A DNA stretch of 64,000 nucleotides from Ignavibacteriales bacterium (GTDB lineage: Bacteria > Bacillota_I > Bacilli_A > RF39 > UBA660). Both the position numbers and the translations under genes were made by a program. Within the stretch, counting starts at the first letter, position 1. Each line of letters starts with the position of its first letter. A model generated the notes under the pieces. The model was given only the letters and a program-made list of their open reading frames with translations, made no database searches and was not told the DNA's origin. This document shows, piece by piece, positions 18,814 through 45,976 of this stretch. Where the stretch lies: assembly GCA_050259235.1 (NCBI GenBank), contig JBLNAG010000001.1, forward strand, positions 86,640 to 150,639. Reading direction: 5' to 3'.

Positions 18814-20061
18814 TTAATATATTAATGTTTTTAGATAATCGACATCATCATCACGTACAACTGTATATCTTGGAATCAATAATTTATTAACGCCTTGTAC
18901 TGCCTTACGATATCCTCCTATAAATGCTAATTTAAACCCAGCTTCTTTTAATACCGAAACTGCATAGTCATTATATTCATAAAAAGGATAACAAAATACT
19001 TTACTATTATTTAATATTTCACTACTAGTTTTTAAATCAGCAAGTAACATTTCTTTTGGAAGACATTTTATTCCCCCACCTTGACCTCCAGGACATACAC
19101 CTTGTTTATGAAGATTATTTCCATGAGAATGTAATTCTAAATAATCTGATTTATATATTTCAGGACTATATGAACTAGTAATTAAAAACAATGTAGCATT
19201 AATTTTATATTTTTCTAATATTGGTATAGCTCTAACACCAAGATACCCATCATCAATGGTAATAGAAACACTATTAGTTGGTATTCTAATTTTGCCATCT
19301 AAAAATAAATCCATTTCCTCCATAGTTAATGAAAGAAAGTTATTATCCGCAAAAAACTTTATATGTGAATCAAATTGACTCTCTGTGTGACATATTTCTG
19401 AAGTACAGGTTTCGACATTTGGATCATATATAGCGTGATAAGTTAATATGGCAATATTGTTTCTTGAATTATCTATAGTATTTTGAGTAGTAACTACTTC
19501 TTTAACATCACTTTTTAATACATAATATAATTCATTATTTAATTCAACATAATATTTATCAGTATCTTTGATAATAATCGGTAAATTATATGATTTGTTA
19601 ATAGTTAAAACTAAATTATTATCATTATAAAAATTAGTAATATTATTAGTAACAATATTCTCATTAAATAATATATATTTCTTGTATCTAGTATTCTTTT
19701 CACTAGGATTTTCAATTTTATCGACATCTTGATATTTAACATAATAATTTAATTCATCAATTAAAAAGTATTCTGTTTCATAAGTAATATTTATATTGCT
19801 TAATTTTAATTCATAGCCTTGATCAATACTACCGATTTGTTTATATTGTTCATCATATAGGTTTGTCTTTTTATTTGTAATAACAAAATTTCCATAATGT
19901 TTATTGATATCATCTACTTTATTTTGTCTTTCTTTTTCTATTTTTTCTTGCTTAGCAATTTCTTCTTTTTTATTTTGTTGATCAATTATGTAAGTAATGG
20001 TAAGTATACTTATTAATAATAGAATAATACTTAAAAAAATAAATACTACTTTCTTTTTCAT
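18814..20061 (-). CDS. Polysaccharide deacetylase (NodB homology/CE4) with N-terminal TM anchor
   Basis: SITIDDGYLGV...NATLFLI and HSHGNNLH motifs of the CE4 family; N-terminal TM helix and Lys/Glu-rich linker. Confidence 0.75.
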   Translation of the reverse strand: MKKKVVFIFLSIILLLISILTITYIIDQQNKKEEIAKQEKIEKERQNKVDDINKHYGNFVITNKKTNLYDEQYKQIGSIDQGYELKLSNINITYETEYFLIDELNYYVKYQDVDKIENPSEKNTRYKKYILFNENIVTNNITNFYNDNNLVLTINKSYNLPIIIKDTDKYYVELNNELYYVLKSDVKEVVTTQNTIDNSRNNIAILTYHAIYDPNVETCTSEICHTESQFDSHIKFFADNNFLSLTMEEMDLFLDGKIRIPTNSVSITIDDGYLGVRAIPILEKYKINATLFLITSSYSPEIYKSDYLELHSHGNNLHKQGVCPGGQGGGIKCLPKEMLLADLKTSSEILNNSKVFCYPFYEYNDYAVSVLKEAGFKLAFIGGYRKAVQGVNKLLIPRYTVVRDDDVDYLKTLIY

Positions 20062-20149
20062 TTTTTACCTCCAAATTATACAATAATATATCTAAATTAC
20101 TACTATGATATTATATCATAAAAAAACACAAGTTATTGTGTTTTTTATA

Positions 20150-21244
20150 TTATTTAAACTTTTCAATTATTGCATCAGCAATACGCTTACTAGCATGACC
20201 ATCACCATATGGATTACTAGCATGACTCATTATTTCATACACCTTTTTATCAGTTAATAATTCTTTAGTTAATTTGTAAATGTTTTCTTCATTAGTACCA
20301 GCTAATTTTAATGTGCCAGCACCTATTCCTTCCGGTCTTTCAGTAGTATCCCTTAATACTAAAACTGGTTTTCCTAATGATGGAGCTTCTTCTTGAATTC
20401 CACCACTATCAGTTAAAATAATGTATGATTTATTGATAAAATTATGAAAATCAACTACTTCTAGAGGTTCAATCATTTTTACTCTATCAGTTTCTCCTAA
20501 TACTTCATTTGCAATTTCTCTTACTTTTGGATTCATATGAATTGGATAAATAACTTTAACATCATCAAATTCTTCTACAATTCTTTTAATTGCTCCAAAA
20601 ATATGATACATTGGTTCACCCAAGTTTTCTCTTCGATGAGCAGTAAGTAATATCATACGTGATTTTCCTACCCACTCAAATATTTCATGGTAATAATTTT
20701 CTTTAACTGTAGTAGCCATAGCATCAATTGCAGTATTACCAGTAATATAAATATTTCCCCTACCTTCATTTTTTAAGTTACTTGCACTTAATTCAGTAGG
20801 ACAGAAATTCATATCTGACACACAACTTACCATTTGACGATTCATTTCTTCAGGATATGGTGAATATTTATCAAATGTTCTAAGTCCTGCTTCAACATGC
20901 CCAATTGCAACTTGATTATAGAAAGCTGCTAAAGCCCCTACAAAAGTAGTTGTAGTATCACCATGTACTAATACTATATTAGGTTTTACTTCTTTAATAA
21001 CACTTTCTAATCCAGTTAAAGCTCTAGTTGTAATATCTCCTAATGTTTGTCCTTGTTGCATAATATTTAAATCATAATCAGGTACTATCTCAAATGTATT
21101 TAATACTTGATCTAACATTTGTCTATGTTGTGCTGTAACGCAAACAATCGTTTCAATTTCTTTTCTTGTTTTTAATTCTTTAACTAACGGTGCCATTTTA
21201 ATTGCTTCAGGTCTTGTCCCAAATATTGTCATAACTTTTATCAT
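20150..21244 (-). CDS. mnaA: UDP-N-acetylglucosamine 2-epimerase (non-hydrolysing), MnaA/WecB
   Basis: MIKVMTIFGTRPEAIKMAPL N-terminus and conserved HVEAGLRT and DSGGIQEEAP motifs. Confidence 0.9.
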   Translation of the reverse strand: MIKVMTIFGTRPEAIKMAPLVKELKTRKEIETIVCVTAQHRQMLDQVLNTFEIVPDYDLNIMQQGQTLGDITTRALTGLESVIKEVKPNIVLVHGDTTTTFVGALAAFYNQVAIGHVEAGLRTFDKYSPYPEEMNRQMVSCVSDMNFCPTELSASNLKNEGRGNIYITGNTAIDAMATTVKENYYHEIFEWVGKSRMILLTAHRRENLGEPMYHIFGAIKRIVEEFDDVKVIYPIHMNPKVREIANEVLGETDRVKMIEPLEVVDFHNFINKSYIILTDSGGIQEEAPSLGKPVLVLRDTTERPEGIGAGTLKLAGTNEENIYKLTKELLTDKKVYEIMSHASNPYGDGHASKRIADAIIEKFK

Positions 21245-21257
21245 AATAAATCTCCCA

Positions 21258-21971
21258 TCACTTCGTCATTTTTTTAACTTTTAAAATAAATTTAATATTG
21301 TTATTATAAAATCTTTTAATTCTCTTTGGTTCCATACAAATTCGATATAACCATTCTAAATTTAATTTGATAAATATTTTAGGGGCTCTTTTTTTTATAC
21401 CACTAAGTACATCTAGTGAACCACCTACTCCAACGAAAATACCTTTTTTAAAATTATCCAGATGTTTATATATTAACTTTTCTTGATTTCCCATTCCAAG
21501 CGCTACTAAAACTATATCTGGTTTAGCTTTAATTATTTCTTCAAAGTCTTTATCTTTATTTTTACTATATCCGTTTAAAGTAACTGCAACTTTTAAATTA
21601 GGATACTTACGTTTAAAAACTACTTTCAAAGCATCTATAACTTCTTGTTTGGAACCTAATATGCATATAGTTTTTTCTAATTCATTGCCGTATTCTAATA
21701 GTTTTTCAGCTATATCAACACCTGTTATACGTTCTTTAATATCATATCCTAGCATTTTAGTAGCTTTAACTATTCCTACACCGTCAGGTACCATAATTGT
21801 ATTATCATCAAGTAATAATCTATTAAATTCAATATCATTATTTGCAATCATCATTGTTTCTGGATTAGCAGTAACAATAAACTTCTTTTTTTCTTGAATC
21901 AATGCTTTCTTTAAATCTTGATAGAAAGATGTAGCATTTTTTTTATATAATTTTTTAAACAACTTCTTCAT
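21258..21971 (-). CDS. tagA: WecG/TagA/CpsF family (GT26) N-acetylmannosaminyltransferase
   Basis: 237 aa; LLLDDNTIMVPDGVGIV and LGSKQEV motifs of GT26; adjacent to mnaA as in wall teichoic acid linkage-unit loci. Confidence 0.8.
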   Translation of the reverse strand: MKKLFKKLYKKNATSFYQDLKKALIQEKKKFIVTANPETMMIANNDIEFNRLLLDDNTIMVPDGVGIVKATKMLGYDIKERITGVDIAEKLLEYGNELEKTICILGSKQEVIDALKVVFKRKYPNLKVAVTLNGYSKNKDKDFEEIIKAKPDIVLVALGMGNQEKLIYKHLDNFKKGIFVGVGGSLDVLSGIKKRAPKIFIKLNLEWLYRICMEPKRIKRFYNNNIKFILKVKKMTK

Positions 21972-23275
21972 TATTTATTCTCACTTTCACTAAGTAATTT
22001 CACAATTGCTTTTGCTTTTTCTTTCCAATCATTTTCTTTAGCTTCTTTATCTAATAATTTTAAATATTTTTTATCATTTTTCATTTTTAGAGCTTTATCA
22101 ATATTTTCAATAAACTCTTGATGATTTTTTCCAATAAAAACAGATTCATATTTACGACATTCATTCATATCTGTTGTTACAATAGGCTTTTTTAAAGCCA
22201 TGTATTCAAATATTTTAACTGGAGAAGTTGCTTTAGTTATATCATTTATTAAAAATGGAATTGTTAAAACATCTATTTTATTAGCATAATTCTTTAACAC
22301 TTTATAGTCTCTAGAGCCTAAAAAATATACATTTTTACAATCTTTAATATTATTTTTATCAAATGAATCATCATACTTAATTCCAAATATAACTATATTA
22401 TATTTATTAGTTTCATCTAATTTCTTTAATAAATCATAATCAAACCACTTAGCTAATGCACCATAATATCCAATTAAAGGTTTTGAATCATCTATTAATT
22501 TCTTAAATTCTTTTTCAAATTTAAACTTCTTATCGATTGTTTGAAAATGACCATAATCAACACCATTAGAAGAAAATGCTAATTTAACATCTCCTCTTTT
22601 AGATATGACATCATTTTGTAACATATCTGCAGTAACTACTACAAATACATTTTCAGTATCAACCATTGCATATTCATATTTTTCTTTAACATTTACAGGT
22701 AATTCTTTAGTACCAGCAAGTAAAGGACTTAAATCATCAATATATTCATAAATAATCTTATAACCCTTATCTATATATTCATTAATTGTTTTCAAATTTA
22801 ATACCCAATCTGTAGAATAGAATTGGAGATATTTAGGCTTTAAATTACTATCAATTCTTTTCATTAATAATTTAGAAAAATTTTTATTTTTAAAATTGAC
22901 TAAATATAAATTATTTTGAACTTTTTGAATAGTATTAACCTTATCTGTCATCGTAGTTACTTCATAAAAAACTAAACATTTTTGCTTTGATAAGTTATTT
23001 GAAATGTGTTGTGGTCTTTGAAATAAAGGTACATTCCAGCCAAAAGAACTTCGCCAAATAATAATTCGATCATATTTTTCTTTCTTTATTATTTCATCTA
23101 TATATTTAATATATTGTTTCTTGTTTTTTATAAAATCAATTTTTGAACCTAAATTCAAAACATGAGAGAACTCAGCATATATATATTTTATAGCTTTTTT
23201 CATAAATCCTAATAATCCATCTTTTTTTAAAATTGATTTTAATTTTGATATCTTATCTTGCATACTACACCTCAC
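21971..23275 (-). CDS. GT-B fold glycosyltransferase (GT1/GT4-like, TuaH-like)
   Basis: C-terminal SPVKIFEYMALKKPIVTTDMNE fits the GT4 EX7E nucleotide-sugar-binding motif. Tandem paralog of the next gene. Confidence 0.55.
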   Translation of the reverse strand: MRCSMQDKISKLKSILKKDGLLGFMKKAIKYIYAEFSHVLNLGSKIDFIKNKKQYIKYIDEIIKKEKYDRIIIWRSSFGWNVPLFQRPQHISNNLSKQKCLVFYEVTTMTDKVNTIQKVQNNLYLVNFKNKNFSKLLMKRIDSNLKPKYLQFYSTDWVLNLKTINEYIDKGYKIIYEYIDDLSPLLAGTKELPVNVKEKYEYAMVDTENVFVVVTADMLQNDVISKRGDVKLAFSSNGVDYGHFQTIDKKFKFEKEFKKLIDDSKPLIGYYGALAKWFDYDLLKKLDETNKYNIVIFGIKYDDSFDKNNIKDCKNVYFLGSRDYKVLKNYANKIDVLTIPFLINDITKATSPVKIFEYMALKKPIVTTDMNECRKYESVFIGKNHQEFIENIDKALKMKNDKKYLKLLDKEAKENDWKEKAKAIVKLLSESENK

Positions 23276-24467
23276 TAATAAAATTAATTATTTCGTTACA
23301 CTTACTAGACCAAGTATTATTTAGTGCATCTTTTCTCAACAACTCTATATAATTTTTGTCTTTAGCAAGTCCAATTGCTTTATCTAAATTTTCAATAAAC
23401 TCTTGATGATCTTTAGATATTAATATTGATTTATATTTATGACATTCCGGCAAATTTGTGGTAACAATAGGCTTTTCACTTGCCATATATTCAAATAATT
23501 TTACCGGTGAAGTAGATAATGTTATTTCATTAATGATAAATGGAATAATACATACATCAAAGTAACTTGAATATATAGGAAGTTCATCATAATCTTTTTT
23601 ACCTAAATAATAAACGTTTTCCAAATTCAAAATGTCACTTTCTTCTAACGAATCATCATATTTTAAACCAATTAAAACAATTTCATATTTATTAGTATCG
23701 GACATTTTTTTTATAAGATCATAATCAAACCAACTAGCTAACGCTCCATAATAACCAATAATTGGTTTATTACTGTTTTTAATTTTTGCTATTTCATTTG
23801 GTATTTTATATTCTTTCTTTTTAAAATGTTCATAATCACACCCATTAGTAATAAGTTTTACTCTGGCATTTTTATTTGAATTTAAAACATTATTATATAG
23901 TTTATTTGCAGTACATATAATATAATTCCTATTGTTCATTACTATATTGTTAAAGTTTTCAAATAATTTTTGAGTGGTTTTTTTACCACATAATTTTTCA
24001 TCTATATCATCAACGTATTCATAAATTAATTTAAACTTATGGTTTTTGTATATATTTATAGTTTTTTCACTTATATAATTAGTTGAATATATCATTAAAA
24101 ATTTATCTGAAAATTTTCTCAAATATTTTAAAATTTTATTTCTATATATATCCATATTAATTAAAATTAGATTATCTTTTATTTCTTTATATTGATATTT
24201 GTTATCATATTTATCACGATTCGAATGATAAATAAATAGAATATTATCATCAAAATTTGAAGCAATTTGTTGTGGCCTTTGCTTCATAATACCATTCCAG
24301 CCAAAATTGTTTTCAAAAATAACTATTGTTTCATATTTATGAACGTTAATTTTTTCTAAAATTTCCTTTATCTTTTTATCTTTCTTCATTGTAATATACG
24401 GTTTAATCATAATTAAAGATTTATTAATTATTTTGCTAATTTTTTTCATTATTACACCCCATACCAT
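23265..24467 (-). CDS. GT-B fold glycosyltransferase (GT1/GT4-like), paralog of 21971..23275
   Basis: SPVKLFEYMASEKPIVTTNLPE motif; collinear similarity to the adjacent gene (GYYGALA(K/S)WFDYDL, IPF(L/I)INEIT, HQEFIEN(I/L)DKA). Confidence 0.55.
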   Translation of the reverse strand: MVWGVIMKKISKIINKSLIMIKPYITMKKDKKIKEILEKINVHKYETIVIFENNFGWNGIMKQRPQQIASNFDDNILFIYHSNRDKYDNKYQYKEIKDNLILINMDIYRNKILKYLRKFSDKFLMIYSTNYISEKTINIYKNHKFKLIYEYVDDIDEKLCGKKTTQKLFENFNNIVMNNRNYIICTANKLYNNVLNSNKNARVKLITNGCDYEHFKKKEYKIPNEIAKIKNSNKPIIGYYGALASWFDYDLIKKMSDTNKYEIVLIGLKYDDSLEESDILNLENVYYLGKKDYDELPIYSSYFDVCIIPFIINEITLSTSPVKLFEYMASEKPIVTTNLPECHKYKSILISKDHQEFIENLDKAIGLAKDKNYIELLRKDALNNTWSSKCNEIINFISEV

Positions 24468-24532: not shown

Positions 24533-27016
24533 TTATTTTAATAACTTATTTATTAATCTTGATATTTTCGGATGGTTTTTAAATTTGAAAGATACAATAT
24601 TTTTTAAGGTTGTACGATCATTTCTATATAAATAAATAAATTTTTTAATTTGTTTAATCGGTATAATACCCCTTTTTGTATAAGAAGTACTATCTTCCTT
24701 AACTATCTCATATAATTTCTCATTATATGTATGGATTATTTTTTGGACATCTAAATTGTCGTATTCTATTTTCATACCTTTATCTACAACAACATTATTA
24801 TTTATATACAATTTGTCATAATTTTTCTTATTATTGCCATATAGTGTTTTTGTTAGATTATTCAATTTGTCACTTATTAATTTTGATTGCTTTTCATTAA
24901 AATTGGTTTTTGATGTAAAGAAATCAGACACATCTTTAAAATTATCATCTCGTTGGTAAATTTCTTCATATAATTCAACTATTTTTTTGTTATAAATATT
25001 TACATCATAATGTTTTTCTGCTAGTTTACGAGCTAATTTTCCTCTTTTGATTCTTTCATTTTCATTTTCAATAAGTAATAATATTGCATTTGATAATGCA
25101 AGCGAATTTTTATTTTCAACTAGAACTCCGCATTCTGGAGCAAATGTAATTGAAGGTAGAGATGTATTATTAAAAACAATCACTGGTCTACCACAAGCCA
25201 TAGATTCTATTGCCATCATTCCAAAACTTTCACCAATTGATGGCATTAAAAAGAAATCACACGCCCTATATGCACTAATTAGTGTATCAGTATCAATTTC
25301 TCCTAAATCAATAATATTAAATTTGTTTTTTATTTCATTCAATAGTCCAACTTCATCACACGTAATTATCGTTATTTTTTTATTTGTTACCAATTTTTTC
25401 ATTGCTTCAAGAATATATTCAGTGCCTTTAAAATGCTTTTGTGCCCTATGAAAAATGACAATATCACTTTCATCAATATTAAATTTCTTTCTTGCAATAG
25501 CACTTGACATTTTTTCATTAAACTTATCTAGGTCGATACCAAATGGTATTAAGTGAACATTTTTAAAGTTTTTTGTTAAAGGACTAGTTTTAATTAGATT
25601 TAGCATATATTCAGAAGATACAACTATATCTACATTAATATTATCATATACTAATTTTTTTAAGTTCCATAATTGATTACAGTTATCCTCATTTAAAGGG
25701 AAAAGAGTCTTTAAATGATTACAATTTTTACAACCACTTTTCCATTTATCACATTCACCAAAATGAACACATCTACCAGTTATGGTCCAAGGATCGTGAA
25801 TACTAAAAACTGATTTCTTTTTATTGCATAATTCAATTAAAGAATATAAAGATAATTTTGTATTATGTATCAAATGATAATGAGCAATATCACTATTATT
25901 AAATAAAAAATTTCTCTTTAATGCAGGAGAAGTTAATGACAAATTGGAATGTACGGACATTTTGTCTGATTCGAATGTTGAAATGTACTGTTCATATTGT
26001 TTTTCATAATTATTCAAAAGAATTTTGACATTATCATCATTCGAAATCTTGTCTGTTACTAATTGTATACATTTGTGTTTTGTATTATTATTTATATATT
26101 TTTGGATATCATATCCATTAAAACGACGACCAAGAATATCAATATTATTAATCTCTAATATTTTTATTACGTTATTATTTTTATATATTTCATTCAATTT
26201 ATTTTGGCAATGAGTTAAAGCTTCAAAATATGGTGTTGAACTTAAAAATTCAATCATAGTTTCATAATATTTATCAATACCCATGCATAATTCGATTTTT
26301 TGTTGATCTGAAAAATTCTCAACTAATTTTATCCAAAATGTGTTTCCCTCACTAGCAACTTTCGGATTTATATTGGTTTGTTGATTCTTATGTAAACGTG
26401 TAGTTGCTAGAACATCTTCCATATGAATAAATGGATATTTTTTGATCATTTCTAGCCATTTTTCATAATCTTGAGTACATCTTAAATTTTCATCAAATAA
26501 GCCACAAGTATCAAATGCAATTTTAGGTATTAGAAGTGTGATACCATTAATACACCCATTTAGTAAACAAAATTCTGGATGTTCAAGTAATAACTTATGA
26601 TCATGAATTACTGGTTCTGCAAATTTTCTTCCTCTAGCATTGATAAAATCATAATTTGAATATAATATTACATTTTTATTTTTTTCATTATTTAAAAATT
26701 CAATTTGTTTTTCAATTTTATTTTTGTAATAAACATCATCATGACTTAACCATGAAAAATAATCACCTGTCATATTTTTTATCGCTAGATTCAATGCAGA
26801 AGAAACACCGCCGTTTGATTTTGAAAAATATCTGATTTTTTTCCCATAAGATTGCGCAATTTTATCGGTTTTCCCAGAATCATTTGAGCCATCATTTACA
26901 ACAATTATTTCAATATTTTTATATGTTTGACTTATTGCACTATCAATGGCTTTTTTCATATATTTACTACCATTATATACAGGTATTACGATTGTTACTT
27001 TGGGATTAAATTTCAC
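24533..27016 (-). CDS. Bifunctional glycosyltransferase: N-terminal GT2 plus C-terminal GT4 with Cys-rich linker
   Basis: N-terminus VTIVIPVYNGSKYMKKAIDSAISQTYKNIEIIVVNDGSNDSG (GT2, DXD). C-terminus GESFGMMAIESMACGRPVIV (GT4 EX7E). Linker CVHFGECDKWKSGCKNCNHLK. Confidence 0.75.
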   Translation of the reverse strand: MKFNPKVTIVIPVYNGSKYMKKAIDSAISQTYKNIEIIVVNDGSNDSGKTDKIAQSYGKKIRYFSKSNGGVSSALNLAIKNMTGDYFSWLSHDDVYYKNKIEKQIEFLNNEKNKNVILYSNYDFINARGRKFAEPVIHDHKLLLEHPEFCLLNGCINGITLLIPKIAFDTCGLFDENLRCTQDYEKWLEMIKKYPFIHMEDVLATTRLHKNQQTNINPKVASEGNTFWIKLVENFSDQQKIELCMGIDKYYETMIEFLSSTPYFEALTHCQNKLNEIYKNNNVIKILEINNIDILGRRFNGYDIQKYINNNTKHKCIQLVTDKISNDDNVKILLNNYEKQYEQYISTFESDKMSVHSNLSLTSPALKRNFLFNNSDIAHYHLIHNTKLSLYSLIELCNKKKSVFSIHDPWTITGRCVHFGECDKWKSGCKNCNHLKTLFPLNEDNCNQLWNLKKLVYDNINVDIVVSSEYMLNLIKTSPLTKNFKNVHLIPFGIDLDKFNEKMSSAIARKKFNIDESDIVIFHRAQKHFKGTEYILEAMKKLVTNKKITIITCDEVGLLNEIKNKFNIIDLGEIDTDTLISAYRACDFFLMPSIGESFGMMAIESMACGRPVIVFNNTSLPSITFAPECGVLVENKNSLALSNAILLLIENENERIKRGKLARKLAEKHYDVNIYNKKIVELYEEIYQRDDNFKDVSDFFTSKTNFNEKQSKLISDKLNNLTKTLYGNNKKNYDKLYINNNVVVDKGMKIEYDNLDVQKIIHTYNEKLYEIVKEDSTSYTKRGIIPIKQIKKFIYLYRNDRTTLKNIVSFKFKNHPKISRLINKLLK

Positions 27017-28188: not shown

Positions 28189-28318
28189 TATTCTACTCCT
28201 TTACAAAAATAATAATTTTTTATATCGATTTCTGATATCTTTATAGTTAATAATCAGATATATTAAATTTTACTTTTCTATTTAATTATACATTATATTT
28301 TTTTAATTTGAAATATAT

Positions 28319-28358: not shown

Positions 28359-28399
28359 TCTATATTAACATTATTTTGCCAATAGTTAATCATATAATA

Positions 28400-36821: not shown

Positions 36822-37161
36822 TTTTATCTTTGATTCCCTTCAATATACTTACCTCTTGAATCAATAATTTTAATTGCTCTTTTTGTTTTGAAACAATTAT
36901 AGTCAATGAAATTGTGATAACAAATAAAAAAGCAATAATTAATATAAATAATAAATTTGAGGCAACTTGTATTTTGAATATATTTGTTAACCAAACAAGT
37001 ATTGGTGGAAAAATAACAAAAAGTAATAACACAAAAGTACAGGAATACCATACTAATGAATATTTAATAGTAATTTTATCTTTTCTTACAAATAATGTTA
37101 TTATTAGAATAATTGCTAAGAGAAATAACAGTGCTGCTAATTTTAAATTTTCCGATATCAT
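36805..37161 (-). CDS. DUF2304-like small membrane protein (GtrA-like partner of the adjacent GT2)
   Basis: 118 aa, 3 TM helices, charged C-terminal coil; immediately downstream of a GT2 DPM1-like gene, the common GT2+DUF2304 pairing. Confidence 0.5.
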   Translation of the reverse strand: MISENLKLAALLFLLAIILIITLFVRKDKITIKYSLVWYSCTFVLLLFVIFPPILVWLTNIFKIQVASNLLFILIIAFLFVITISLTIIVSKQKEQLKLLIQEVSILKGIKDKNVKRK

Positions 37162-37877
37162 TATTTATACCTCCTTATACTTGTAATTAGTATAGACAGA
37201 AGCACATTGATCATATAATATATATTTTTCCATGCACGAATCGAAGATTGACCTTCTTTTCTACTATGCATAACGACAGGAACCTCTAATATATTATATT
37301 TCATTTTTAATAACATAACTTCTGAAATAGGTTCTGGATATTCTGATGGATATTCATTAATAAATTCTCGCATAATATTTTTATCTATTGCTCGAAAACC
37401 CGATGTTGGATCATATACTTTATTTTTTGTAAATAATTTGATAAATAACGAAATTATCTTAATTCCTACTCTTCTTGCTTTTGAAGATTTAAATCCTTTA
37501 GTTTTTGGTAAGATAAATCTTGACCCAATACACATATTACATTCATTATTTATAATGGGTTCTATTATATTTTTTACATAATTAATATCATGTTGACCAT
37601 CACCATCAAATTGAACGGCAATGTCATAATCATGAGTTGCTGCATACTTATATCCTGTTTGAACAGCTCCACCAATGCCCAAATTGGTTATTAAATCAAT
37701 ATGAGGAATATTATTCACATCTAAAATTTCACCAGTTTTATCAAAGGAACCATCATTAATAAATATACAATCATAAGTTTCTTGATTTTTGCTGTTATAT
37801 TCACATATTTTATTCCATAAATTAAGAACATTTTTTTCTTCGTTATACGAAGGTATTATTAATAATATTTTTTTCAT
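37161..37877 (-). CDS. GT2 polyprenyl-phosphate glycosyltransferase (DPM1-like)
   Basis: LLIIPSYNEEKNV...FINDGSFD...QFDGDGQHD (DXD) motifs; 238 aa, soluble GT-A domain. Confidence 0.8.
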   Translation of the reverse strand: MKKILLIIPSYNEEKNVLNLWNKICEYNSKNQETYDCIFINDGSFDKTGEILDVNNIPHIDLITNLGIGGAVQTGYKYAATHDYDIAVQFDGDGQHDINYVKNIIEPIINNECNMCIGSRFILPKTKGFKSSKARRVGIKIISLFIKLFTKNKVYDPTSGFRAIDKNIMREFINEYPSEYPEPISEVMLLKMKYNILEVPVVMHSRKEGQSSIRAWKNIYYMINVLLSILITSIRRYK

Positions 37878-37893
37878 ATTACTTCCCCTATAC

Positions 37894-39807: not shown

Positions 39808-40919
39808 TACTTAATCTCCAAATAAAATGTGTCGGGATTTTCAGGATCAAATAATTCATTACACCAAATTAGCAAAATCATCTCACCATCACCAATGTTT
39901 TCAATATTATGAGTATATCCTACTGGAATTGTAACAATTTCAATATTATTTTCATCAACAACAAATTCGACCTTTTCTCCAGTAACAACATGTTCAAATT
40001 TTATTTTTGCTATTCCCTTGATAACGATAAATCTTTCTACTTTAGTATTATGATAATGATTTCCACGAATTACATTTGGTTTAGATATTGATACGGAAAA
40101 TTGCCCACAATTTAATGTTCTATTTATTTCAGTGAAACTACCCCTATCATCTACATTTTTCTTAGTTAAAATATGCATTTGATCTATAGGAACATAGCTA
40201 ATGTACGTAGAATATAATTTTTTAATAAATTCATTCCCTGTTTCGGGGGTATATATTGATCTCATTGAATCCCTAAATGAATATATCAATTTTGAAAGAT
40301 TTCCAAGTGTAATCTTTTTTACTGGTTTAATATAATTAATTTGCTTTTTTATTCTAATATTAGTTTTATTATTGTCAGTTACCAAAGATATAAGTTCTTT
40401 ACATATATCATCTATATATATCAACTGAATTTCAGTTTTTTTATCATTTATTTGAATTGGCAGATCATTTGCAATATTATAACAAAAAGTAGCCACTACA
40501 GAGTTATAATTTGGTCTGCACCATTTTCCAAAAACATTATGAAATCTATAAATAATACCATATTTATAATTGTTAATAATATAGTCTTCAGCTTGTTTTT
40601 TGCTTTTACCATAATCATTATCTAATTCAGCTTGAATGCTTGATGAATAAATCAAAGGTATTTTTTTATTTTTTTCATTTAAAAGATTAATAATATCTTT
40701 GGTTAAATTAGTATTTCCTTCATAAAATTCTGATACATCTTTTGGCCTATTTATCCCAGCAAAATGAAATATAAAATCGATAGTATCAATATTTTCTTTT
40801 ATTTTTGAAAATTCATCTTCCACGTTAAATTCAATCACTTCAACATCTTTAGTTTCTCGTAAGAAAACCAGCATATTTCTACCAATAAATCCTTTTGAAC
40901 CAGTTAATAATACTTTCAT
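39807..40919 (-). CDS. fnlB: CapF/FnlB-like bifunctional UDP-sugar reductase/epimerase (N-terminal SDR plus C-terminal cupin)
   Basis: MKVLLTGSKGFIGRN Rossmann motif, then FGKWCRPNYNSVVATFCY, VDDRGSFTE, IPVGYTHNIEN, FDPENPDTFYLE. Collinear with S. aureus CapF (369 aa). Confidence 0.85.
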   Translation of the reverse strand: MKVLLTGSKGFIGRNMLVFLRETKDVEVIEFNVEDEFSKIKENIDTIDFIFHFAGINRPKDVSEFYEGNTNLTKDIINLLNEKNKKIPLIYSSSIQAELDNDYGKSKKQAEDYIINNYKYGIIYRFHNVFGKWCRPNYNSVVATFCYNIANDLPIQINDKKTEIQLIYIDDICKELISLVTDNNKTNIRIKKQINYIKPVKKITLGNLSKLIYSFRDSMRSIYTPETGNEFIKKLYSTYISYVPIDQMHILTKKNVDDRGSFTEINRTLNCGQFSVSISKPNVIRGNHYHNTKVERFIVIKGIAKIKFEHVVTGEKVEFVVDENNIEIVTIPVGYTHNIENIGDGEMILLIWCNELFDPENPDTFYLEIK

Positions 40920-40932: not shown

Positions 40933-41928
40933 TTATTGAAATAAATCTAATTTTAATAATAACTTTTTCATTCCTTCAACATCAAGTCTTACAGTATTAT
41001 GAGAATTATATTCTTCAATATTATTAAAATCAGTTATTCCCTTTGTCTCATATTTTGCATAGTTTAAATTGCGATTATCAGATGGTATTTTGAAATAATC
41101 TCCAAGATCTACTGCATTTACCATTTCCTCTTTTGTAACTAAAACTTCATATAATTTTTCACCATGTCGTTCTCCGATGTTTTTAATTTCAGCATCGGAT
41201 TTTTTTAATTCTTTGATAGCTTGCGCTAATACATCAATTGTTGCAGCAGGAGCTTTTTGAACGAATAAATCTCCTTGTTCTCCATGTTCAAATGCATACA
41301 ATACCAAATCAACAGCATCATCTAATGTCATCATAAAACGTGTCATATTTGGATTTGTAATTGTCAATGACTTACCAGCTTCAATTTGGTCTAAAAATAA
41401 TGGTATTACAGATCCACGTGAAGCCATTACATTTCCATATCTAGTTCTACATATTACTGTTTGATCTGGTCGCAAATTTCTTCCTTTTGCAACTGCAACT
41501 TTTTCCATTAAAGCTTTGCTCATTCCCATAGCATTTATAGGATAAGCTGCCTTGTCAGTACTTAAACATATTACTTTTTTAACACCTTTTTCAATTGCAG
41601 CAGTTAAAACATTATTTGTTCCTAAAATATTTGTTTGCACTGCTTCAATTGGAAAAAATTCACACGAAGGGACTTGTTTTAATGCGGCAGCATGGAATAC
41701 ATAATCTACCCCCTCCATAGCATCACTTACACTGGAATAATCACGTACGTTTCCGATGTAAAATTTAATTTTTTCATTATTGTATTTAATTCTCATATCT
41801 TCTTGTTTTTTTTCATCTCTTGAAAATATTCGTATTTCCTTTATATCTGTGTCAAGAAATCTTTTTAGTACAGCATTTCCAAATGATCCTGTACCACCTG
41901 TAATTAATAATATTTTGTCATTAAACAT
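40933..41928 (-). CDS. fnlA: CapE/FnlA-like UDP-GlcNAc 4,6-dehydratase/5,3-epimerase
   Basis: MFNDKILLITGGTGSFGNAVLKRFLDTDIKEIRIFSRDEKKQ...HAAALKQVPSCEFFP...STDKAAYPINAMGMSKA, near-collinear with Cap5E/FnlA. Confidence 0.9.
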   Translation of the reverse strand: MFNDKILLITGGTGSFGNAVLKRFLDTDIKEIRIFSRDEKKQEDMRIKYNNEKIKFYIGNVRDYSSVSDAMEGVDYVFHAAALKQVPSCEFFPIEAVQTNILGTNNVLTAAIEKGVKKVICLSTDKAAYPINAMGMSKALMEKVAVAKGRNLRPDQTVICRTRYGNVMASRGSVIPLFLDQIEAGKSLTITNPNMTRFMMTLDDAVDLVLYAFEHGEQGDLFVQKAPAATIDVLAQAIKELKKSDAEIKNIGERHGEKLYEVLVTKEEMVNAVDLGDYFKIPSDNRNLNYAKYETKGITDFNNIEEYNSHNTVRLDVEGMKKLLLKLDLFQ

Positions 41929-41957: not shown

Positions 41958-43025
41958 TTATTTTTTGTTATTAATTTTTAATTCCTCTATTTTTTTATCG
42001 ATATATTCAACCATTTCAGTTATACAATTATTTGAATAAAATCTTCTCATTACTGTATAAAAATTGTACATACTACCCTCTAAATTAATCTTCACTTCAT
42101 CTGGTATATTATCAATAATTTTTTTTCTTGCTTCATTTGTCTCAATTATTACTTTTTCGTTTGTATTTGTAACTTGTTCACCATGACTTCTTATCAGTGT
42201 AGTTGCAATAGGTATACTAACAAATCGGTACTTTGGCATGATTCTAGACCACATTTCTCGCTCTTGGGAAATTCTAAGTTTTTCGTTAAAAAGGCCAACT
42301 TCATCTAATATTTTTTTACTTATTAACACTGAACCGCCATTTATTTCTCCTTGCAATAATGCATACTCAGGTTTAAGCTTGGTCATTTTATAATCAAAGC
42401 AATGTAAATTGCACGTTACTGTTTGATCTAACAGTATATTTAAATCTTTATCAACAATATTGAAATTAGTATAAGTTACTACATTTCTATCTGAAATATT
42501 TGCTAAATATTCAATATGTGTTTCAATATTATTAGGTAAATATATATCATCATGGCTTAACCAAGCAAAATATTCACCAGTCATATTTTTTATGCCATAA
42601 TTTAATGCAGATGAAACGCCACCATTTTCTTTTTTTAGATATCTAATTCTATTTTTATATGATTTTGCAATTTTCTCCGTTGCACCATCATCATTACTGC
42701 CATCGTTAACCACAATTATTTCAATATTTTTATATGTTTGAGACAAAGCACTATCAATTGCTTGTCCTAAATATTTTTCTCCATTATAAACTGGTATTAT
42801 TATTGAAACTTTTGGGTTAAATATAGTAGAATCAAGATTTTTCATTTCAATTTTTTTTAATCGCAAATCAATATCGTATAGTAATTGATTTGTATTGTTA
42901 TTAAATTCATAAATTTTATATTCTAAGACATTATACATTTTATGCATTCTAACTTCAAAATCATAAGTACTTTCATTAACAATCGTTCTTACAATTTTTT
43001 TTATTACTTTTTTAAGAAATTTCAA
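41958..43025 (-). CDS. GT2 glycosyltransferase
   Basis: VSIIIPVYNGEKYLGQAIDSALSQTYKNIEIIVVNDGSNDDGATEKIAKSY is a clear paralog of the GT2 domain of the 827-aa protein. Confidence 0.75.
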   Translation of the reverse strand: MKFLKKVIKKIVRTIVNESTYDFEVRMHKMYNVLEYKIYEFNNNTNQLLYDIDLRLKKIEMKNLDSTIFNPKVSIIIPVYNGEKYLGQAIDSALSQTYKNIEIIVVNDGSNDDGATEKIAKSYKNRIRYLKKENGGVSSALNYGIKNMTGEYFAWLSHDDIYLPNNIETHIEYLANISDRNVVTYTNFNIVDKDLNILLDQTVTCNLHCFDYKMTKLKPEYALLQGEINGGSVLISKKILDEVGLFNEKLRISQEREMWSRIMPKYRFVSIPIATTLIRSHGEQVTNTNEKVIIETNEARKKIIDNIPDEVKINLEGSMYNFYTVMRRFYSNNCITEMVEYIDKKIEELKINNKK

Positions 43026-43101: not shown

Positions 43102-44385
43102 CTACTTTATGAATTTCTTATCCTTTAATAAGCTTTTATTAATATTTGTCCATTTATTAACAAAATAGTTACCCTTTTCCATTATTAGTTTAGTATGATT
43201 ATCACTACCGCTTTTTGTTGTTTGATGTGGCAAATGCTTTATGCCAAGATATGGACAATAAACTATCTTTTTACCTACATTACGAATCTTCATTGAAATA
43301 TCAGTATCCTCATAACAAGTAGGGTCATAATTTATATCAAAACCATCTATTTCATTAAACAATTTACGTTCAAGAATCATTCCGCCAGTACCTAAATAAC
43401 CAATATCATCACGATACAAACCATTTGGTGGCATATATCTGTAAGGAAAATTATCAGTTACTTGGCAAGCGTAACCTTTTTTATTAAACCATCCTGCTGC
43501 CCAACCAATAGCACCAATCGAAGTAGAATTGTCAATAATATCAAGGTAATTGTCTAACCAATAATCATTTAATACCCATTGATCACTATCTAAAAACATA
43601 ATATATTTTCTATTTGATAAATTAACACCTAAATTTCTACCAGACGAACACCCATTTTTACTATTTTGAATTAATTTAATTTTATTGGTGTACTTTTTAA
43701 TTAGATTTTCATAAGACCCATCAACACTTCTATTGTCAACAACAATAACTTCATAATTGTATCTTCCATTATGTTTTAATAAGGAGTCAATACAAGTATC
43801 AATAATGCCCATATTATTGTAATTTAAGACAATAATTGATATGTTTTCATAAAATTTATGATTACAATATCCTTTTTTATCCACAAGTCTTATACAATTA
43901 TTATATACATTTTCTTCTTTAGTACCGTTTAGTATATATGCCTTCTTTAAAAGGGATTTGTGAACATATTTTTTTAATGAATGGTCTAGAATAAAAATAT
44001 CGTTATCACTTATATTAACATTAATCTTATTTTTAATTTTAATATGCTTACTTACGGGTAATATAGTATTTGTTTGATTCTTATAATTATTTAAATAGTA
44101 ATATTCAACTAAATAACCCATTTCGTTTAAGATATTTGCATAATGGTTATTGATGTAATCACCATCGTTATAATACACGGGATAACTGGATACAATAAAT
44201 GCTTTTTTTAAATTTTTATAAAATATATTCTTTTTATTTTTTTTCTTAATTATATATAATCTTTTTTTATTTGCAACTATTTCAGATTTAAATTTCAAAC
44301 GTAAATATAAAATAATTTTTTTTATTGTATTTTTTAGCCCATTCTCATTAAAATTTTTAATAATCTTAATAATTTTATTTTTCAT
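43102..44385 (-). CDS. GT2 glycosyltransferase with ~170-aa N-terminal domain of unknown function
   Basis: C-terminal ISIIVLNYNNMGIIDTCIDSLLKH...VVDNRSVDGS...DSDQ GT2 motifs (rhamnosyltransferase-like). Confidence 0.7.
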   Translation of the reverse strand: MKNKIIKIIKNFNENGLKNTIKKIILYLRLKFKSEIVANKKRLYIIKKKNKKNIFYKNLKKAFIVSSYPVYYNDGDYINNHYANILNEMGYLVEYYYLNNYKNQTNTILPVSKHIKIKNKINVNISDNDIFILDHSLKKYVHKSLLKKAYILNGTKEENVYNNCIRLVDKKGYCNHKFYENISIIVLNYNNMGIIDTCIDSLLKHNGRYNYEVIVVDNRSVDGSYENLIKKYTNKIKLIQNSKNGCSSGRNLGVNLSNRKYIMFLDSDQWVLNDYWLDNYLDIIDNSTSIGAIGWAAGWFNKKGYACQVTDNFPYRYMPPNGLYRDDIGYLGTGGMILERKLFNEIDGFDINYDPTCYEDTDISMKIRNVGKKIVYCPYLGIKHLPHQTTKSGSDNHTKLIMEKGNYFVNKWTNINKSLLKDKKFIK

Positions 44386-44414
44386 TTTCCACCTCCTACT
44401 TAATAAAGAAAATA

Positions 44415-45161
44415 TTACTTGTTTTTCATGTAATTTATATACTCATCACACACTTTATTAGCAGGACCAACTTTTATAATTTCGCCTTTATCTAACCATA
44501 TGACCTTATTACATAAAGATTTAATTGAATCTATTGAGTGAGAAACATATAAAACTGTAGTTCCCCCACCTATCATATTTCTCATTTTATTTTCACTTTT
44601 CTGTTGAAAGTTAATATCTCCAACGGATAAAATTTCGTCAACAATTAATATTTCCGGATCAACTACTGTGGCAATAGAAAAAGCTAATCTTGCCACCATT
44701 CCAGAGGAAAAATTTCGAACTGGAACATCAAGAAATTCAATTAATTCAGAAAATTCAACAATCTCATCAAATTTACTATCTATAAATTTTTTTGAATATC
44801 CTAACACAGCACCATTCAAATAAATATTTTCTCTGGCTGTTAAATCCGGATCAAAACCAGCACCAAGTTCAATCATAGGACAAATATTACCTCCAATTTG
44901 AACTTTTCCTTTTGTAGGCTTCATAACCCCAGCAACGATTTTCAATAATGTTGATTTTCCAGCACCATTGCTACCAATAAATCCTACAACTTCGCCCTTT
45001 TCAACTTCAAAATTAACATTTTTTAATGCCCAAAAGTCACTTTTATTTTTCTTTATTTTGCCACTAAATAAATCAACAAAAAATTGTTTTATAGAGAAAT
45101 TTCTTTCTATTCCCAAATTAAAGCGCATCGATACATTTGTAATTTTTATCATTTTTTTCAC
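44415..45161 (-). CDS. tagH: ABC transporter ATP-binding protein, polysaccharide/teichoic acid export (TagH/Wzt-like, short form)
   Basis: Walker A GSNGAGKST, signature LSGGM..., Walker B ILIVDE; NLGIERNFSIKQFF N-terminus typical of TagH/Wzt. Confidence 0.85.
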   Translation of the reverse strand: MKKMIKITNVSMRFNLGIERNFSIKQFFVDLFSGKIKKNKSDFWALKNVNFEVEKGEVVGFIGSNGAGKSTLLKIVAGVMKPTKGKVQIGGNICPMIELGAGFDPDLTARENIYLNGAVLGYSKKFIDSKFDEIVEFSELIEFLDVPVRNFSSGMVARLAFSIATVVDPEILIVDEILSVGDINFQQKSENKMRNMIGGGTTVLYVSHSIDSIKSLCNKVIWLDKGEIIKVGPANKVCDEYINYMKNK

Positions 45162-45166
45162 CTTCT

Positions 45167-45976
45167 CTATACATAGTAAATAAATTTATCTTGATATTTT
45201 CTAAAAATAAATAGTCCTATAAATAATGTAATTAATGCTGACGTTCCACACCAAATAAAATTAGACAGAGTTGGTAATTGGCTTTCCAAAATAATAGTAC
45301 GAGCAAAATCAATATATTGATATAAAGGATTTAATTTAAAAAAGAACTGATATTTTGGTGCAATCATAGAAATATCATACATAATTGGAGTTAAATAGGT
45401 CCATATTGTAATAACAATTCCATATATATAGAACATATCTCTTAAAAAAACAGATATAGTAGCTAAAACAAAGCTAACTCCAATCGTAAACAATAATAAG
45501 CACATAAATGCATATGGCAATAGTAAATGTAAAAAAGTTATTGCACATTCAGTATCACCACTACCAGTAAATATTATGACAAGATAAAGAGGTATTAATG
45601 TTAGAAGAAAATTAATACCTACAAATAAGATTTTTGATAAAGGAAATATATATTTAGGAATATATATTTTATTTATCAGTGAAAAATTAGCTACAACAGA
45701 ACTCATAGCAAGATTAGATGCTTCACTAAAATAATTAAAAAATGTTAATCCTATCATTAAATATACTAGATAGTTAACACCTGGCACACTAAATTTAAAT
45801 ACATTTGAAAAAACTAATGCCATAACAGTCATCATCAATAAAGGATATAATAAACTCCATATAACACCTAAGAAAGATCTTTTATATTTAACCTTAAAAT
45901 CTCTTGCTATTAATTGTTGCAATAAAAAAGAGTATCTTTTTAAATTGTAATATATATTTTTTATAAACATAAACAC
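45167..45976 (-). CDS. tagG: ABC-2 type transporter permease (TagG/Wzm-like)
   Basis: 269 aa, 6 TM helices, ABC-2 family layout; immediately upstream of tagH. Confidence 0.8.
   Translation of the reverse strand: MFMFIKNIYYNLKRYSFLLQQLIARDFKVKYKRSFLGVIWSLLYPLLMMTVMALVFSNVFKFSVPGVNYLVYLMIGLTFFNYFSEASNLAMSSVVANFSLINKIYIPKYIFPLSKILFVGINFLLTLIPLYLVIIFTGSGDTECAITFLHLLLPYAFMCLLLFTIGVSFVLATISVFLRDMFYIYGIVITIWTYLTPIMYDISMIAPKYQFFFKLNPLYQYIDFARTIILESQLPTLSNFIWCGTSALITLFIGLFIFRKYQDKFIYYV

Follow-up and report, generated by a model that had tools for sequence, protein, structure and literature searches.

A 27-kb glycan locus of a probable monoderm Bacilli lineage that may build one wall polysaccharide from an ABC-exported backbone and a lipid-linked side chain

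In the Group A carbohydrate pathway of Streptococcus pyogenes, GacI produces GlcNAc-phosphate-undecaprenol and is stimulated by the DUF2304 protein GacJ, the Wzx protein GacK flips the lipid-linked sugar, and GacL, an enzyme of the GT-C class of glycosyltransferases, moves the sugar onto a polyrhamnose exported by the GacD/E ATP-binding cassette (ABC) transporter; the initiator, GacO, is encoded elsewhere (10.1101/180810). The association of a family 2 glycosyltransferase (GT2), a DUF2304 protein and a Wzx protein is the signature of this four-component system, in which Wzx flips a sugar linked to undecaprenyl monophosphate (Und-P) (10.1101/180810; PMC9574508). In Lactococcus lactis, the core formed by WpsA/B, WpsG and WpsJ is elaborated, with cytoplasmic glycosyltransferases that lengthen the Und-P-sugar (PMC9574508) and a second GT-C enzyme, WpsI, that polymerizes the flipped subunits before they are joined to the ABC-exported rhamnan (PMC9574508). 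Here, we analyzed a stretch of 64,000 nucleotides of contig JBLNAG010000001.1 (positions 86,640 to 150,639; hereafter the window, numbered from its first letter), in which 23 contiguous minus-strand open reading frames (ORFs) tile the 27 kb from 45976 to 18814. We propose, with a probability of roughly 0.6 and on the basis of homology and gene order, that this locus directs the synthesis of one peptidoglycan-linked secondary cell-wall polysaccharide by a two-chain route, an ABC-exported backbone plus a lipid-linked side chain. A Wzx flippase beside an ABC exporter does not by itself imply two glycans; the combination typifies the two-chain design originally elucidated in streptococci and lactococci, a design that would occur here in a poorly known low-GC Bacilli lineage and with a non-rhamnan backbone.

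Genes were assigned by Pfam and NCBIfam family searches and by searches against the sequences of solved structures (Protein Data Bank, PDB). The segment of the locus from 28400 to 39807 (11.4 kb) carries, in this order, genes for a GT-C-like protein, a GT2, a DUF2304 protein, Wzx, GmhA, a family 9 glycosyltransferase (GT9), HldE, GmhB, a family 4 glycosyltransferase (GT4) and a second GT-C-like protein:

37894-39807 (-): GT-C-like polytopic membrane protein, 637 aa, without Pfam or NCBIfam match, assigned from a fold model; about 12-13 transmembrane (TM) segments plus a C-terminal domain of about 140 aa
37161-37877 (-): predicted GT2 polyprenyl-phosphate sugar synthase of the GacI/WpsA/PpgS type, 238 aa; best NCBIfam matches PpgS, AglJ, PgfS and ArnC
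36805-37161 (-): small DUF2304 membrane protein of the GacJ/WpsB/Rv3632 type, 3 TM; PF10066 at 73.4 bits (cut-off 25.5), three hydrophobic segments
35397-36821 (-): flippase of the Wzx (MOP) type, 474 aa, occupying the GacK/WpsG position; above cut-off for both PF13440 (46.6 bits) and PF01943 (46.7 bits)
34797-35366 (-): GmhA, sedoheptulose-7-phosphate isomerase; TIGR00441 at 217.4 bits (cut-off 209.45)
33560-34843 (-): GT9 heptosyltransferase-family enzyme; PF01075 at 73 bits, below cut-off for each of the NCBIfam models of heptosyltransferases I, II and III
32100-33557 (-): HldE, bifunctional heptose-7-phosphate kinase / heptose-1-phosphate adenylyltransferase; domains at 349.8 bits (cut-off 345) and 187.3 bits (cut-off 181.5), both above cut-offs
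31595-32116 (-): GmhB, heptose 1,7-bisphosphate 7-phosphatase; NF006506 at 168 bits, just under the cut-off of 178
30380-31588 (-): GT4 of the WcaI/WbuB family, 402 aa; Pfam and NCBIfam
28400-30280 (-): second GT-C-like polytopic protein, 626 aa, with a D110-E111 motif; paralogue of the 637-aa protein, assigned from a fold model

The 238-aa GT2 is unlike the other GT2s of the locus: polyprenyl-phosphate glycosyltransferases took all the top places in NCBIfam, with a PpgS score of 68.7 bits against a cut-off of 370, and dolichol-phosphate-mannose synthase (5mlz, E 3e-13) came before GtrB and ArnC among the PDB sequences. The DUF2304 gene overlaps the stop of the GT2 gene by 1 nt and overlaps the Wzx gene too. 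By analogy with GacJ, the DUF2304 protein would act as an activator of the GT2 (10.1101/180810). Judged by homology, the GT2-DUF2304-Wzx trio and the polytopic GT-C-like protein most likely form a four-component extracytoplasmic glycosylation system, beside an ABC-exported backbone. Of the parts of a Wzx/Wzy-dependent pathway, Wzx alone is present in the window: among all the ORFs of at least 90 aa, neither Pfam nor NCBIfam detected a Wzy (Wzy_C), an O-antigen ligase (O-antigen_lig) or a chain-length regulator (PCP/Wzz). The same set of ORFs held no initiating phosphoglycosyltransferase (PF00953/Glycos_transf_4, PF02397/Bac_transf).

The two polytopic proteins share 25% identity over their full length (E 5e-27). 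No Pfam, NCBIfam or PDB-sequence match was obtained for either of them, and a family profile compared with the PDB sequences returned nothing meaningful. The AlphaFold (AF2) models had a mean predicted local distance difference test (pLDDT) of 75.6 and a predicted template modeling score (pTM) of 0.78 for the 637-aa protein, and of 75.5 and 0.79 for the 626-aa protein. When the 637-aa model was compared with the PDB using Foldseek, the best 12 matches were all GT-C enzymes (STT3, AftA, ALG3, DPY19, ArnT, Pmt4), with probabilities of 0.82-0.99 and weak E values of 0.015-0.15, and the O-antigen ligase WaaL reached a probability of just 0.30. The 626-aa model gave AftA first (probability 0.99, E 0.02), then STT3, Pmt, AftB and EmbC; for the two models together, the E values of the top GT-C matches span 0.015-0.4 and are thus weak. 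These predicted structures weakly suggest a GT-C-like fold for both proteins.

In the family to which both belong, D113, W118, K123, Y143, K263, R443 and Y444 (numbering of the 637-aa protein) are invariant, and E114 and D224 nearly so. The D113-E114 pair follows the four N-terminal helices, where the first large loop begins; by a crude analysis of hydropathy and charge, this loop lies opposite the short loops rich in Lys and Arg, i.e., it is extracellular. An exhaustive profile search recovered at least 5,597 representatives at E <= 1e-3, 2,728 of them at E <= 1e-30 (counted as one per cluster at 50% identity; most are full-length, about 600-650 aa), and a word-indexed search recovered just 21 relatives. 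No consistent family emerged from a Pfam scan of 27 diverse members, and the context of a distant homologue (P0013) was uninformative, not being a glycan locus. The family is large and unannotated, not rare, and is a candidate for a new GT-C-like family definition with invariant D, W, K, Y, K, R and Y. If it were annotated as GT-C-like, many glycan loci of Gram-positive bacteria, which bear on phage receptors and antigens, would be easier to interpret.

Between the flippase gene and the GT4 gene lies the ADP-heptose set. HldD was absent from the window and from the heptose modules of the relatives described below; therefore, the D,D-heptose form is expected as the donor. The GT9 ORF as listed has a TTG start and a 47-nt overlap with GmhA; its true start is probably an ATG near 34786, since the homologues measure 407-412 aa and align from about residue 20. 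Homologues of the GT9 clade make up at least 163 clusters at 90% identity.

We then compared this module with related loci, located with a closer alignment (A2), an alternative one (A1) being too diverse. Six other contexts carried the heptose module, and L002/L007 carried a member of the polytopic family without heptose genes:

L005: metagenomic contig, 12 kb; heptose-module proteins 73-83% identical to those of the window, GT-C family protein 51%; order of the window
L016: Bacilli metagenome-assembled genome (MAG) from roe deer; module genes arranged as in the window
L024: contig OW818670.1 (1.49 Mb); module arranged likewise, with a DUF2142 protein immediately upstream of the GT2
L025: metagenomic scaffold; module arranged likewise; of the 23 gene types of the window, 17 present, in a different overall order
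L027: Bacilli MAG; module arranged likewise, again with a DUF2142 protein immediately upstream of the GT2
L028: contig whose GT9 is labelled 'Firmicutes bacterium' by NCBI; module arranged likewise, with the DUF2142 protein three genes upstream of the GT2, whose direct neighbor is a 465-aa protein without Pfam match
L002/L007: 'Bacillales bacterium UBA5348'; the ABC genes are followed by a GT-C family member; FnlABC, GT2 and DUF2304 are also present, heptose genes absent

We observed the order [polytopic]-GT2-DUF2304-[405-474-aa membrane protein]-GmhA-GT9-HldE-GmhB in all six heptose contexts (L005, L016, L024, L025, L027, L028), down to a GT9 identity of 46%. An ABC-2 exporter is visible in five of the six, L005 ending too early at 12 kb, and it may lie at different places with respect to the module. 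In L005, L016 and L025, a member of the family of the window occupies the polytopic slot; in L024, L027 and L028, a DUF2142 protein is found upstream instead, which fits a functional equivalent that replaces the polytopic family member. The proteins that follow GmhB in L027, L028 and L005 do not belong to the polytopic family, so two family members flanking the cassette are not a conserved feature, and a WcaI/WbuB-family GT4 comes after GmhB in L005, L016, L025 and L026. In the 21 kb of L025, TagA, the exporter, the 427-aa GT2, FnlABC, the module and the GT4 form a single cluster in an order unlike that of the window, and MnaA, the CE4 deacetylase, the two TuaH-like GT4s and a detectable Wzx homologue were not seen there. 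Judged by these gene orders, the locus appears to be mosaic at the level of cassettes yet one locus in the relatives, in which the heptose genes stay linked to those for the lipid-sugar synthase and the flippase. The complete ADP-heptose pathway, together with the GT9, appears to be a fixed part of the side-chain module in numerous related metagenomic genomes. As a separate observation, L008, L009 and L010 carry family members of 43-49% identity and exporter and Fnl genes of 58-83% identity; they were deposited under 'Woesearchaeota archaeon' and 'Muribaculaceae' MAG names and are probably mis-binned contigs of the same Bacilli lineage.

The remainder of the block encodes the exporter, an UDP-N-acetyl-L-fucosamine (UDP-L-FucNAc) pathway, further glycosyltransferases, enzymes of a wall teichoic acid linkage unit and a carbohydrate esterase family 4 (CE4) deacetylase:

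45167-45976 (-): ABC-2 permease of the Wzm/TagG type, 269 aa; PF01061 at 48.8 bits, best NCBIfam match the galactan-export Wzm/RfbD permease, below cut-off
44415-45161 (-): ABC ATPase of the Wzt/TagH type, 248 aa; PF00005, E 3e-62 to Aquifex Wzt (6an5/6oih) and 2e-55 to TarH (6jbh)
43102-44385 (-): GT2, 427 aa; Pfam and NCBIfam, GT2 domain at 183-389, N-terminal 180 aa without match
41958-43025 (-): GT2, 355 aa; Pfam and NCBIfam, 47% identical to the N-terminal domain of the 827-aa enzyme
40933-41928 (-): FnlA/CapE, UDP-GlcNAc 4,6-dehydratase/5-epimerase; TIGR04130 at 584 bits (cut-off 730), E 6e-159 to FnlA 4j2o and 1e-143 to CapE
39807-40919 (-): FnlB/CapF reductase; NF047837 at 417 bits (cut-off 500), E 4e-100 to Cap5F over the full length
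27067-28188 (-): FnlC/Cap5G-type, non-hydrolyzing UDP-N-acetylhexosamine 2-epimerase of the WecB type; PF02350, TIGR00236 at 274 bits (cut-off 210)
24533-27016 (-): two-domain GT2 + GT4, 827 aa; Pfam and NCBIfam
23265-24467 (-): GT4-type (TuaH-like), 400 aa; Pfam and NCBIfam, 43% identical to the next gene
21971-23275 (-): GT4-type (TuaH-like), 434 aa, paralogue of the 400-aa GT4; Pfam and NCBIfam
21258-21971 (-): TagA/TarA-type protein (family of N-acetylmannosamine (ManNAc) transferases acting on undecaprenyl-diphosphate (Und-PP)-GlcNAc); PF03808 at 178 bits, TIGR00696 above cut-off, E 1e-33 to TagA 7mpk
20150-21244 (-): MnaA/WecB, UDP-GlcNAc 2-epimerase; TIGR00236 at 534 bits (cut-off 210)
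18814-20061 (-): CE4 polysaccharide deacetylase, membrane-anchored, 415 aa; PF01522, weak PgaB/IcaB matches, N-terminal TM segment

Both the ABC-2 permease and the cognate ATPase, as ABC-transporter-dependent pathways require, are encoded in the locus; the ATPase is devoid of a C-terminal glycan-binding domain. Homologues of the 427-aa GT2 adjoin or sit near the exporter genes in relatives, and the 827-aa enzyme is a candidate backbone polymerase. TagA scored 180 bits against the TarA equivalog (cut-off 350). The translation of the CE4 protein keeps the metal and catalytic motifs IDDG and HSHxxxLH. In the window, FnlC lies 11.6 kb away from FnlA and FnlB, with the GT-C-bounded cassette (28400-39807) intervening. 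Since FnlA, FnlB and FnlC are contiguous in five related loci (L002/L007, L010, L016, L017, L025), their separation here suggests that the 11.4-kb cassette was inserted into, or recombined within, a fnl operon.

Most of the gene inventory given in the initial annotation, which had been drawn from the letters of the window, was borne out by the Pfam, NCBIfam and PDB-sequence searches, the glycosyltransferase counts excepted. The single contiguous minus-strand block is real, with 23 co-directional genes; MnaA (534 bits), TagA (1e-33 to 7mpk) and the CE4 deacetylase (PF01522) are confirmed; the pair of polytopic proteins of about 630 aa, described as paralogous, measure 637 and 626 aa and are true paralogues (E 5e-27); and the coexistence of a Wzx flippase with a TagGH/Wzm-Wzt-like exporter holds by Pfam. 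A full UDP-L-FucNAc set had been announced, and FnlA, FnlB and FnlC are present, FnlA and FnlB being under the NCBIfam equivalog cut-offs. Likewise, the ADP-heptose genes are there, GmhA and both HldE domains passing curated cut-offs and GmhB nearly so, and the reported lack of an initiating phosphoglycosyltransferase agrees with our search of the ORFs of at least 90 aa. Where five GT2 domains had been counted, we found four (43102-44385, 41958-43025, 37161-37877 and the N-terminus of 24533-27016). Of the announced five or more GT4/GT-B enzymes plus one GT9, the single GT9 stands, but the GT4-type proteins number four (30380-31588, the C-terminus of 24533-27016, 23265-24467 and 21971-23275), so that five GT-B enzymes are reached only if the GT9 is counted. 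Three labels attached to the locus fit in part. 'Teichoic-acid-type' suits the linkage-unit enzymes and the exporter and not the rest, TagB, TagD and TagF being absent; 'O-antigen-type' and 'capsule-type' suit the nucleotide-sugar genes and Wzx and not any assembly pathway.

Under the two-chain reading, the backbone would begin with a TagO/WecA-type initiator encoded elsewhere, which would form Und-PP-GlcNAc, and MnaA and TagA would add ManNAc to give the linkage unit. The two TuaH-like GT4s, the 827-aa GT2 + GT4 enzyme and the two GT2s would extend the chain in the cytoplasm, with the UDP-L-FucNAc from FnlABC among the donors, and the Wzm/Wzt-type ABC-2 transporter would export the finished chain. 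In parallel, the GacI-like GT2, aided by the DUF2304 protein, would place a sugar on Und-P; the side chain would grow in the cytoplasm, probably through the GT9 with ADP-D,D-heptose from GmhA-HldE-GmhB and perhaps through the neighboring GT4. After flipping by Wzx, one or both GT-C-like proteins would graft the side chain onto the exported backbone outside the membrane, and possibly polymerize it. Finally, the anchored CE4 enzyme would deacetylate N-acetylhexosamine residues, and an LCP ligase encoded elsewhere would join the polymer to peptidoglycan. Of this scheme, the gene families, the predicted GT-C-like fold and the conserved gene order come from the analyses above; every donor and acceptor specificity, the operon structure, the final acceptor and the placement of heptose in the side chain are what we infer from them.

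Several observations weigh against this reading. An LCP ligase and an initiating enzyme were not found among the window ORFs of at least 90 aa, and the block has two GT-C paralogues for a single lipid-sugar synthase. It is likewise assumed that the acceptor of the GT-C enzymes is the polymer of their own locus. The GacI-type, GT9, FnlA/B and TagA equivalog scores fall under the NCBIfam cut-offs, and the specificities are thus tentative; for FnlA, FnlB, GmhB, TagA (as TarA) and the GT9, the best match was the family after which each is named. Moreover, the flippase slot, occupied by the 474-aa Wzx in the window and in L005, is held in four of the six relatives (L016, L024, L025, L027) by an unrelated membrane protein family of about 405-417 aa. 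This family is found after DUF2304 at the following positions:

L016, about 3289-4552
L024, 8094-9323
L025, 8152-9387
L027, 8208-9425
L002, 21345-end

In L002/L007, the family thus occurs after DUF2304 without a heptose module. Its members are 35-55% identical to each other and gave no phmmer match to the Wzx of the window, one of them having a weak match to a Wzx family (Polysacc_synt); the 412-aa protein of L028 was left out of this comparison. These proteins may be a non-orthologous replacement of the flippase. Lastly, the data are alike for heptose in the side chain and heptose in the backbone.

This last point leads to the alternative that survives best, in which the locus performs a plain decoration of the Group A carbohydrate kind: heptose and L-FucNAc would both be built into the ABC-exported backbone by the GT9 and the GT4 in the cytoplasm, the GT2/DUF2304/Wzx/GT-C system would add just a single sugar such as GlcNAc on the outside of the cell, and the two GT-C paralogues would place it at two different positions. 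It corresponds to the simplest four-component scheme (10.1101/180810), the acceptors of GT9 enzymes are lipid-anchored at the cytoplasmic face, which fits either chain, and L002/L007 has a GT-C, a GT2 and a DUF2304 gene without heptose genes. However, in all seven heptose contexts (the window and six others), the heptose genes and the GT9 are wedged right between the flippase slot and the remaining locus, and their order is fixed while all the other genes are shuffled, which is easier explained by a role in the side chain. We therefore regard this plain decoration as possible but on the unlikely side. Because the module order is constant in six other contexts, five of them with an ABC-2 exporter in view, we tentatively favor, at somewhat less than even odds, a heptose located in the lipid-linked side chain of the two-chain polymer. 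The complete proposal, that this lineage builds an Und-P-linked, heptose-containing side chain by means of the GT9, that an unannotated GT-C family grafts it onto an ABC-exported wall polysaccharide, and that the lineage is also a Gram-positive source of ADP-heptose, is more speculative still, with about one chance in three.

Two independent glycans from one locus had been the primary reading of the initial annotation: a teichoic-acid-like polymer leaving by the ABC exporter, and a Wzx/Wzy-type heptose/FucNAc heteropolysaccharide for which the polytopic proteins would be the polymerase and/or the ligase. Both transporter types and three nucleotide-sugar pathways are indeed present, and the L. 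lactis GT-C enzyme WpsI does polymerize flipped subunits (PMC9574508). Nevertheless, the window held no Wzy_C/O-antigen-ligase protein, chain-length regulator or initiating phosphoglycosyltransferase, Wzx directly follows the GT2 and DUF2304 genes and is thus tied to a monophosphate-type lipid-sugar synthase in place of a phosphoglycosyltransferase, WaaL reached a probability of 0.30 against the 637-aa model where GT-C enzymes reached 0.9-0.99, and the ABC-2 exporter accompanies the module in relatives (five of six contexts in view). This reading was therefore abandoned as improbable, and homology, fold prediction and conserved synteny favor what had been offered as its alternative, an ABC-exported backbone decorated via the GT2, flippase and GT-C modules. 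A split into independent loci in related genomes, which would have spoken against the locus as a unit, was not what L025 showed: it holds 17 of the 23 gene types in one cluster, which favors a single locus.

Equally improbable in our view, the four-component module could be merely co-located with the wall-polysaccharide genes and serve lipoteichoic acid, peptidoglycan or surface proteins, such as the immunoglobulin (Ig)-like proteins at 56-63 kb. GT-C enzymes of such systems also modify lipoteichoic acid and proteins, Pmt-type O-mannosyltransferases are among the fold matches, and the window contains a further, separate set of genes, GtrA-GT2-DUF6020 at 4900-8060, so that more than one such system is present. 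Against this, the module sits in ABC-2 exporter loci wherever the context is long enough, and in the window it lies inside the fnl gene set, between FnlB and FnlC. Finally, S-layer-type O-glycosylation (WsaB-type oligosaccharyltransferase) and a Wzx/Wzy route were ruled out for want of a Wzy_C or O-antigen-ligase family protein in the window, and a classical teichoic acid as the product was ruled out because TagB, TagD and TagF were not found among the window ORFs of at least 90 aa; within the block, Pfam and NCBIfam gave no Glyphos_transf (TagB/TagF) and no standalone cytidylyltransferase match.

With regard to transcription, neighboring ORFs of the block overlap or lie at most 99 bp apart, the sole exception being a 211-bp gap (28189-28399). 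On the opposite strand of the block, a single ORF (25047-25451) reaches 100 aa; it runs antisense within the gene of a glycosyltransferase and is best regarded as spurious. No terminator-like site was found on the minus strand within the block in a consensus scan, and the best promoter match of the region lies directly upstream of the first gene:

46011-46040 (-): sigma-70-like promoter, TTGAAA, 18-nt spacer, TATAAT with TG; consensus match only

On the basis of these scans, a single 27-kb transcript is plausible. The G+C content is about 25% throughout the 64-kb window, and recent horizontal transfer of the block was rejected, its G+C fraction (0.21-0.28) and skew being the same as those of the flanks. 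Identical proteins, on the same DNA, were found on a contig assembled from run SRR24085913 (Logan contig, located via MnaA); an exact look-up of the 637-aa protein gave no match, probably owing to its GTG start.

The bacterium likely belongs to a monoderm Bacilli lineage. Its closest homologues come from MAGs labelled Bacilli, 'Tenericutes' or Erysipelotrichaceae, many of animal-gut origin, and the labelled relatives are mostly gut-associated. In addition, the 64-kb window encodes an ornate large extremophilic (OLE) RNA, PASTA-domain proteins and an amidase, whereas lipid A genes were not detected in it. The OLE RNA is full-length (18135-18732, minus strand; Rfam RF01071, 356 bits, model 1-616) and fills an apparent 755-bp gap just downstream of the glycan block, with a strong -35/-10 match with TG at 18759-18731. 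It is followed by a 190-aa membrane ORF without Pfam match (17486-18058, minus strand), in what we take to be the position expected for the OLE-associated protein OapA.

Other features of the window were noted alongside. At 4900-8060 (minus strand), a classical three-component set comprises a GtrA-family flippase (131 aa), an AglJ/GtrB-like GT2 (309 aa) and a DUF6020 polytopic protein (617 aa), which hhalign did not relate detectably to the family of the 637- and 626-aa proteins. At 56395-63577 (minus strand), where the G+C is about 32% versus 25%, three paralogous genes encode large surface proteins of 676, 764 and 856 aa that carry bacterial Ig-like domains; a 6S RNA (56151-56329, minus strand) lies directly downstream of the first of these genes, 65 bp from its stop. 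Two genes at 46182-49094 (plus strand) diverge from the head of the locus: one encodes a 598-aa protein that has five PASTA domains but lacks a kinase domain, and the other a membrane acyltransferase (Acyl_transf_3), weakly NolL-like, which could O-acetylate the glycan.

ADP-heptose is an innate-immune agonist currently taken as a Gram-negative marker, and it is treated in the current literature as a Gram-negative metabolite, Streptomyces antibiotics excepted (PMC10221265; PMC12137129). If these bacteria are indeed monoderm residents of the gut, this ALPK1 agonist would not be exclusive to Gram-negatives, and the locus would represent a heptose version of the multicomponent glycosylation system. 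We found no description of a heptose-containing wall-polysaccharide module of this type in Gram-positives in a literature whose coverage was incomplete. The architecture itself is already known; what is new is the non-rhamnan backbone on a TagA linkage unit and the heptose cassette within the four-component module.

Compared with known systems, the locus resembles wall teichoic acid of Bacillus subtilis and Staphylococcus aureus by its TagA (1e-33), MnaA and TagGH/TarGH-like exporter, but TagB/TagF, TagD and TarIJ are lacking in the window, which therefore encodes no polyol-phosphate chain, and TagO is not in the window. With the inner-core heptose pathway of lipopolysaccharide (GmhA, HldE, GmhB, HldD, WaaC/WaaF), it shares GmhA, HldE, GmhB and a GT9; in contrast, HldD and a 3-deoxy-D-manno-octulosonic acid (Kdo) or lipid A context are missing from the window, and the genes stand in a wall-polysaccharide locus of a Bacilli lineage. 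As for the UDP-L-FucNAc pathway (FnlABC/Cap5EFG, WbuB), FnlA and FnlB are near the solved FnlA, CapE and CapF, whereas FnlC is 11.6 kb away.

In mycobacterial arabinogalactan (Wzm-Wzt/RfbDE, AftA, and the PpgS-Rv3632-GT-C galactosamine modification), a linker-bound polymer is likewise ABC-2-exported and decorated outside by GT-C enzymes via polyprenyl-phosphate sugars. A pair of PpgS and DUF2304 proteins takes part in that pathway, the galactan exporter is the best NCBIfam match for the permease and ATPase of the window as PpgS is for its GT2, and AftA is the first or second fold match of the polytopic models; the phylum, the sugars and the linker differ, and the sequences of the window score far under the family cut-offs. 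The Group A carbohydrate locus of S. pyogenes (gacA-L) differs from the window, which is devoid of rhamnose genes, rhamnosyltransferases and the GacH glycerol-phosphate transferase and has instead a TagA/MnaA linkage unit, two GT-C paralogues without Pfam model, and ADP-heptose genes and a GT9 in the module. As in that locus, where the cytoplasmic backbone leaves by an ABC-2 transporter (GacD/E) and the initiator lies outside the cluster (GacO) (10.1101/180810), the backbone here would be made in the cytoplasm and exported by the ABC-2 transporter. Of the four families of the Group A carbohydrate (GT2 Und-P-sugar synthase, DUF2304 protein, Wzx and polytopic GT-C), the window has, side by side, a GT2 of the predicted synthase type, a DUF2304 protein, a Wzx and a GT-C-like protein. 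The cwps locus of L. lactis (rhamnan and PSP; WpsA/B, WpsC-F, WpsG, WpsI, WpsJ) includes a WpsH-like (Wzz-like) protein that the window lacks, and here the backbone is not a rhamnan and the sugars would be heptose and L-FucNAc. In its 'dual-chain assembly', GacI/J homologues start an oligosaccharide on Und-P, glycosyltransferases of the same cassette extend it in the cytoplasm, Wzx flips it, and two different GT-C enzymes polymerize the flipped product and link it to the chain that the ABC transporter has exported (PMC9574508). The segment 28400-39807 of the window has the corresponding two GT-C-like proteins, GT2, DUF2304 protein, Wzx, GT9 and GT4, to which, by analogy, the same roles may be assigned.

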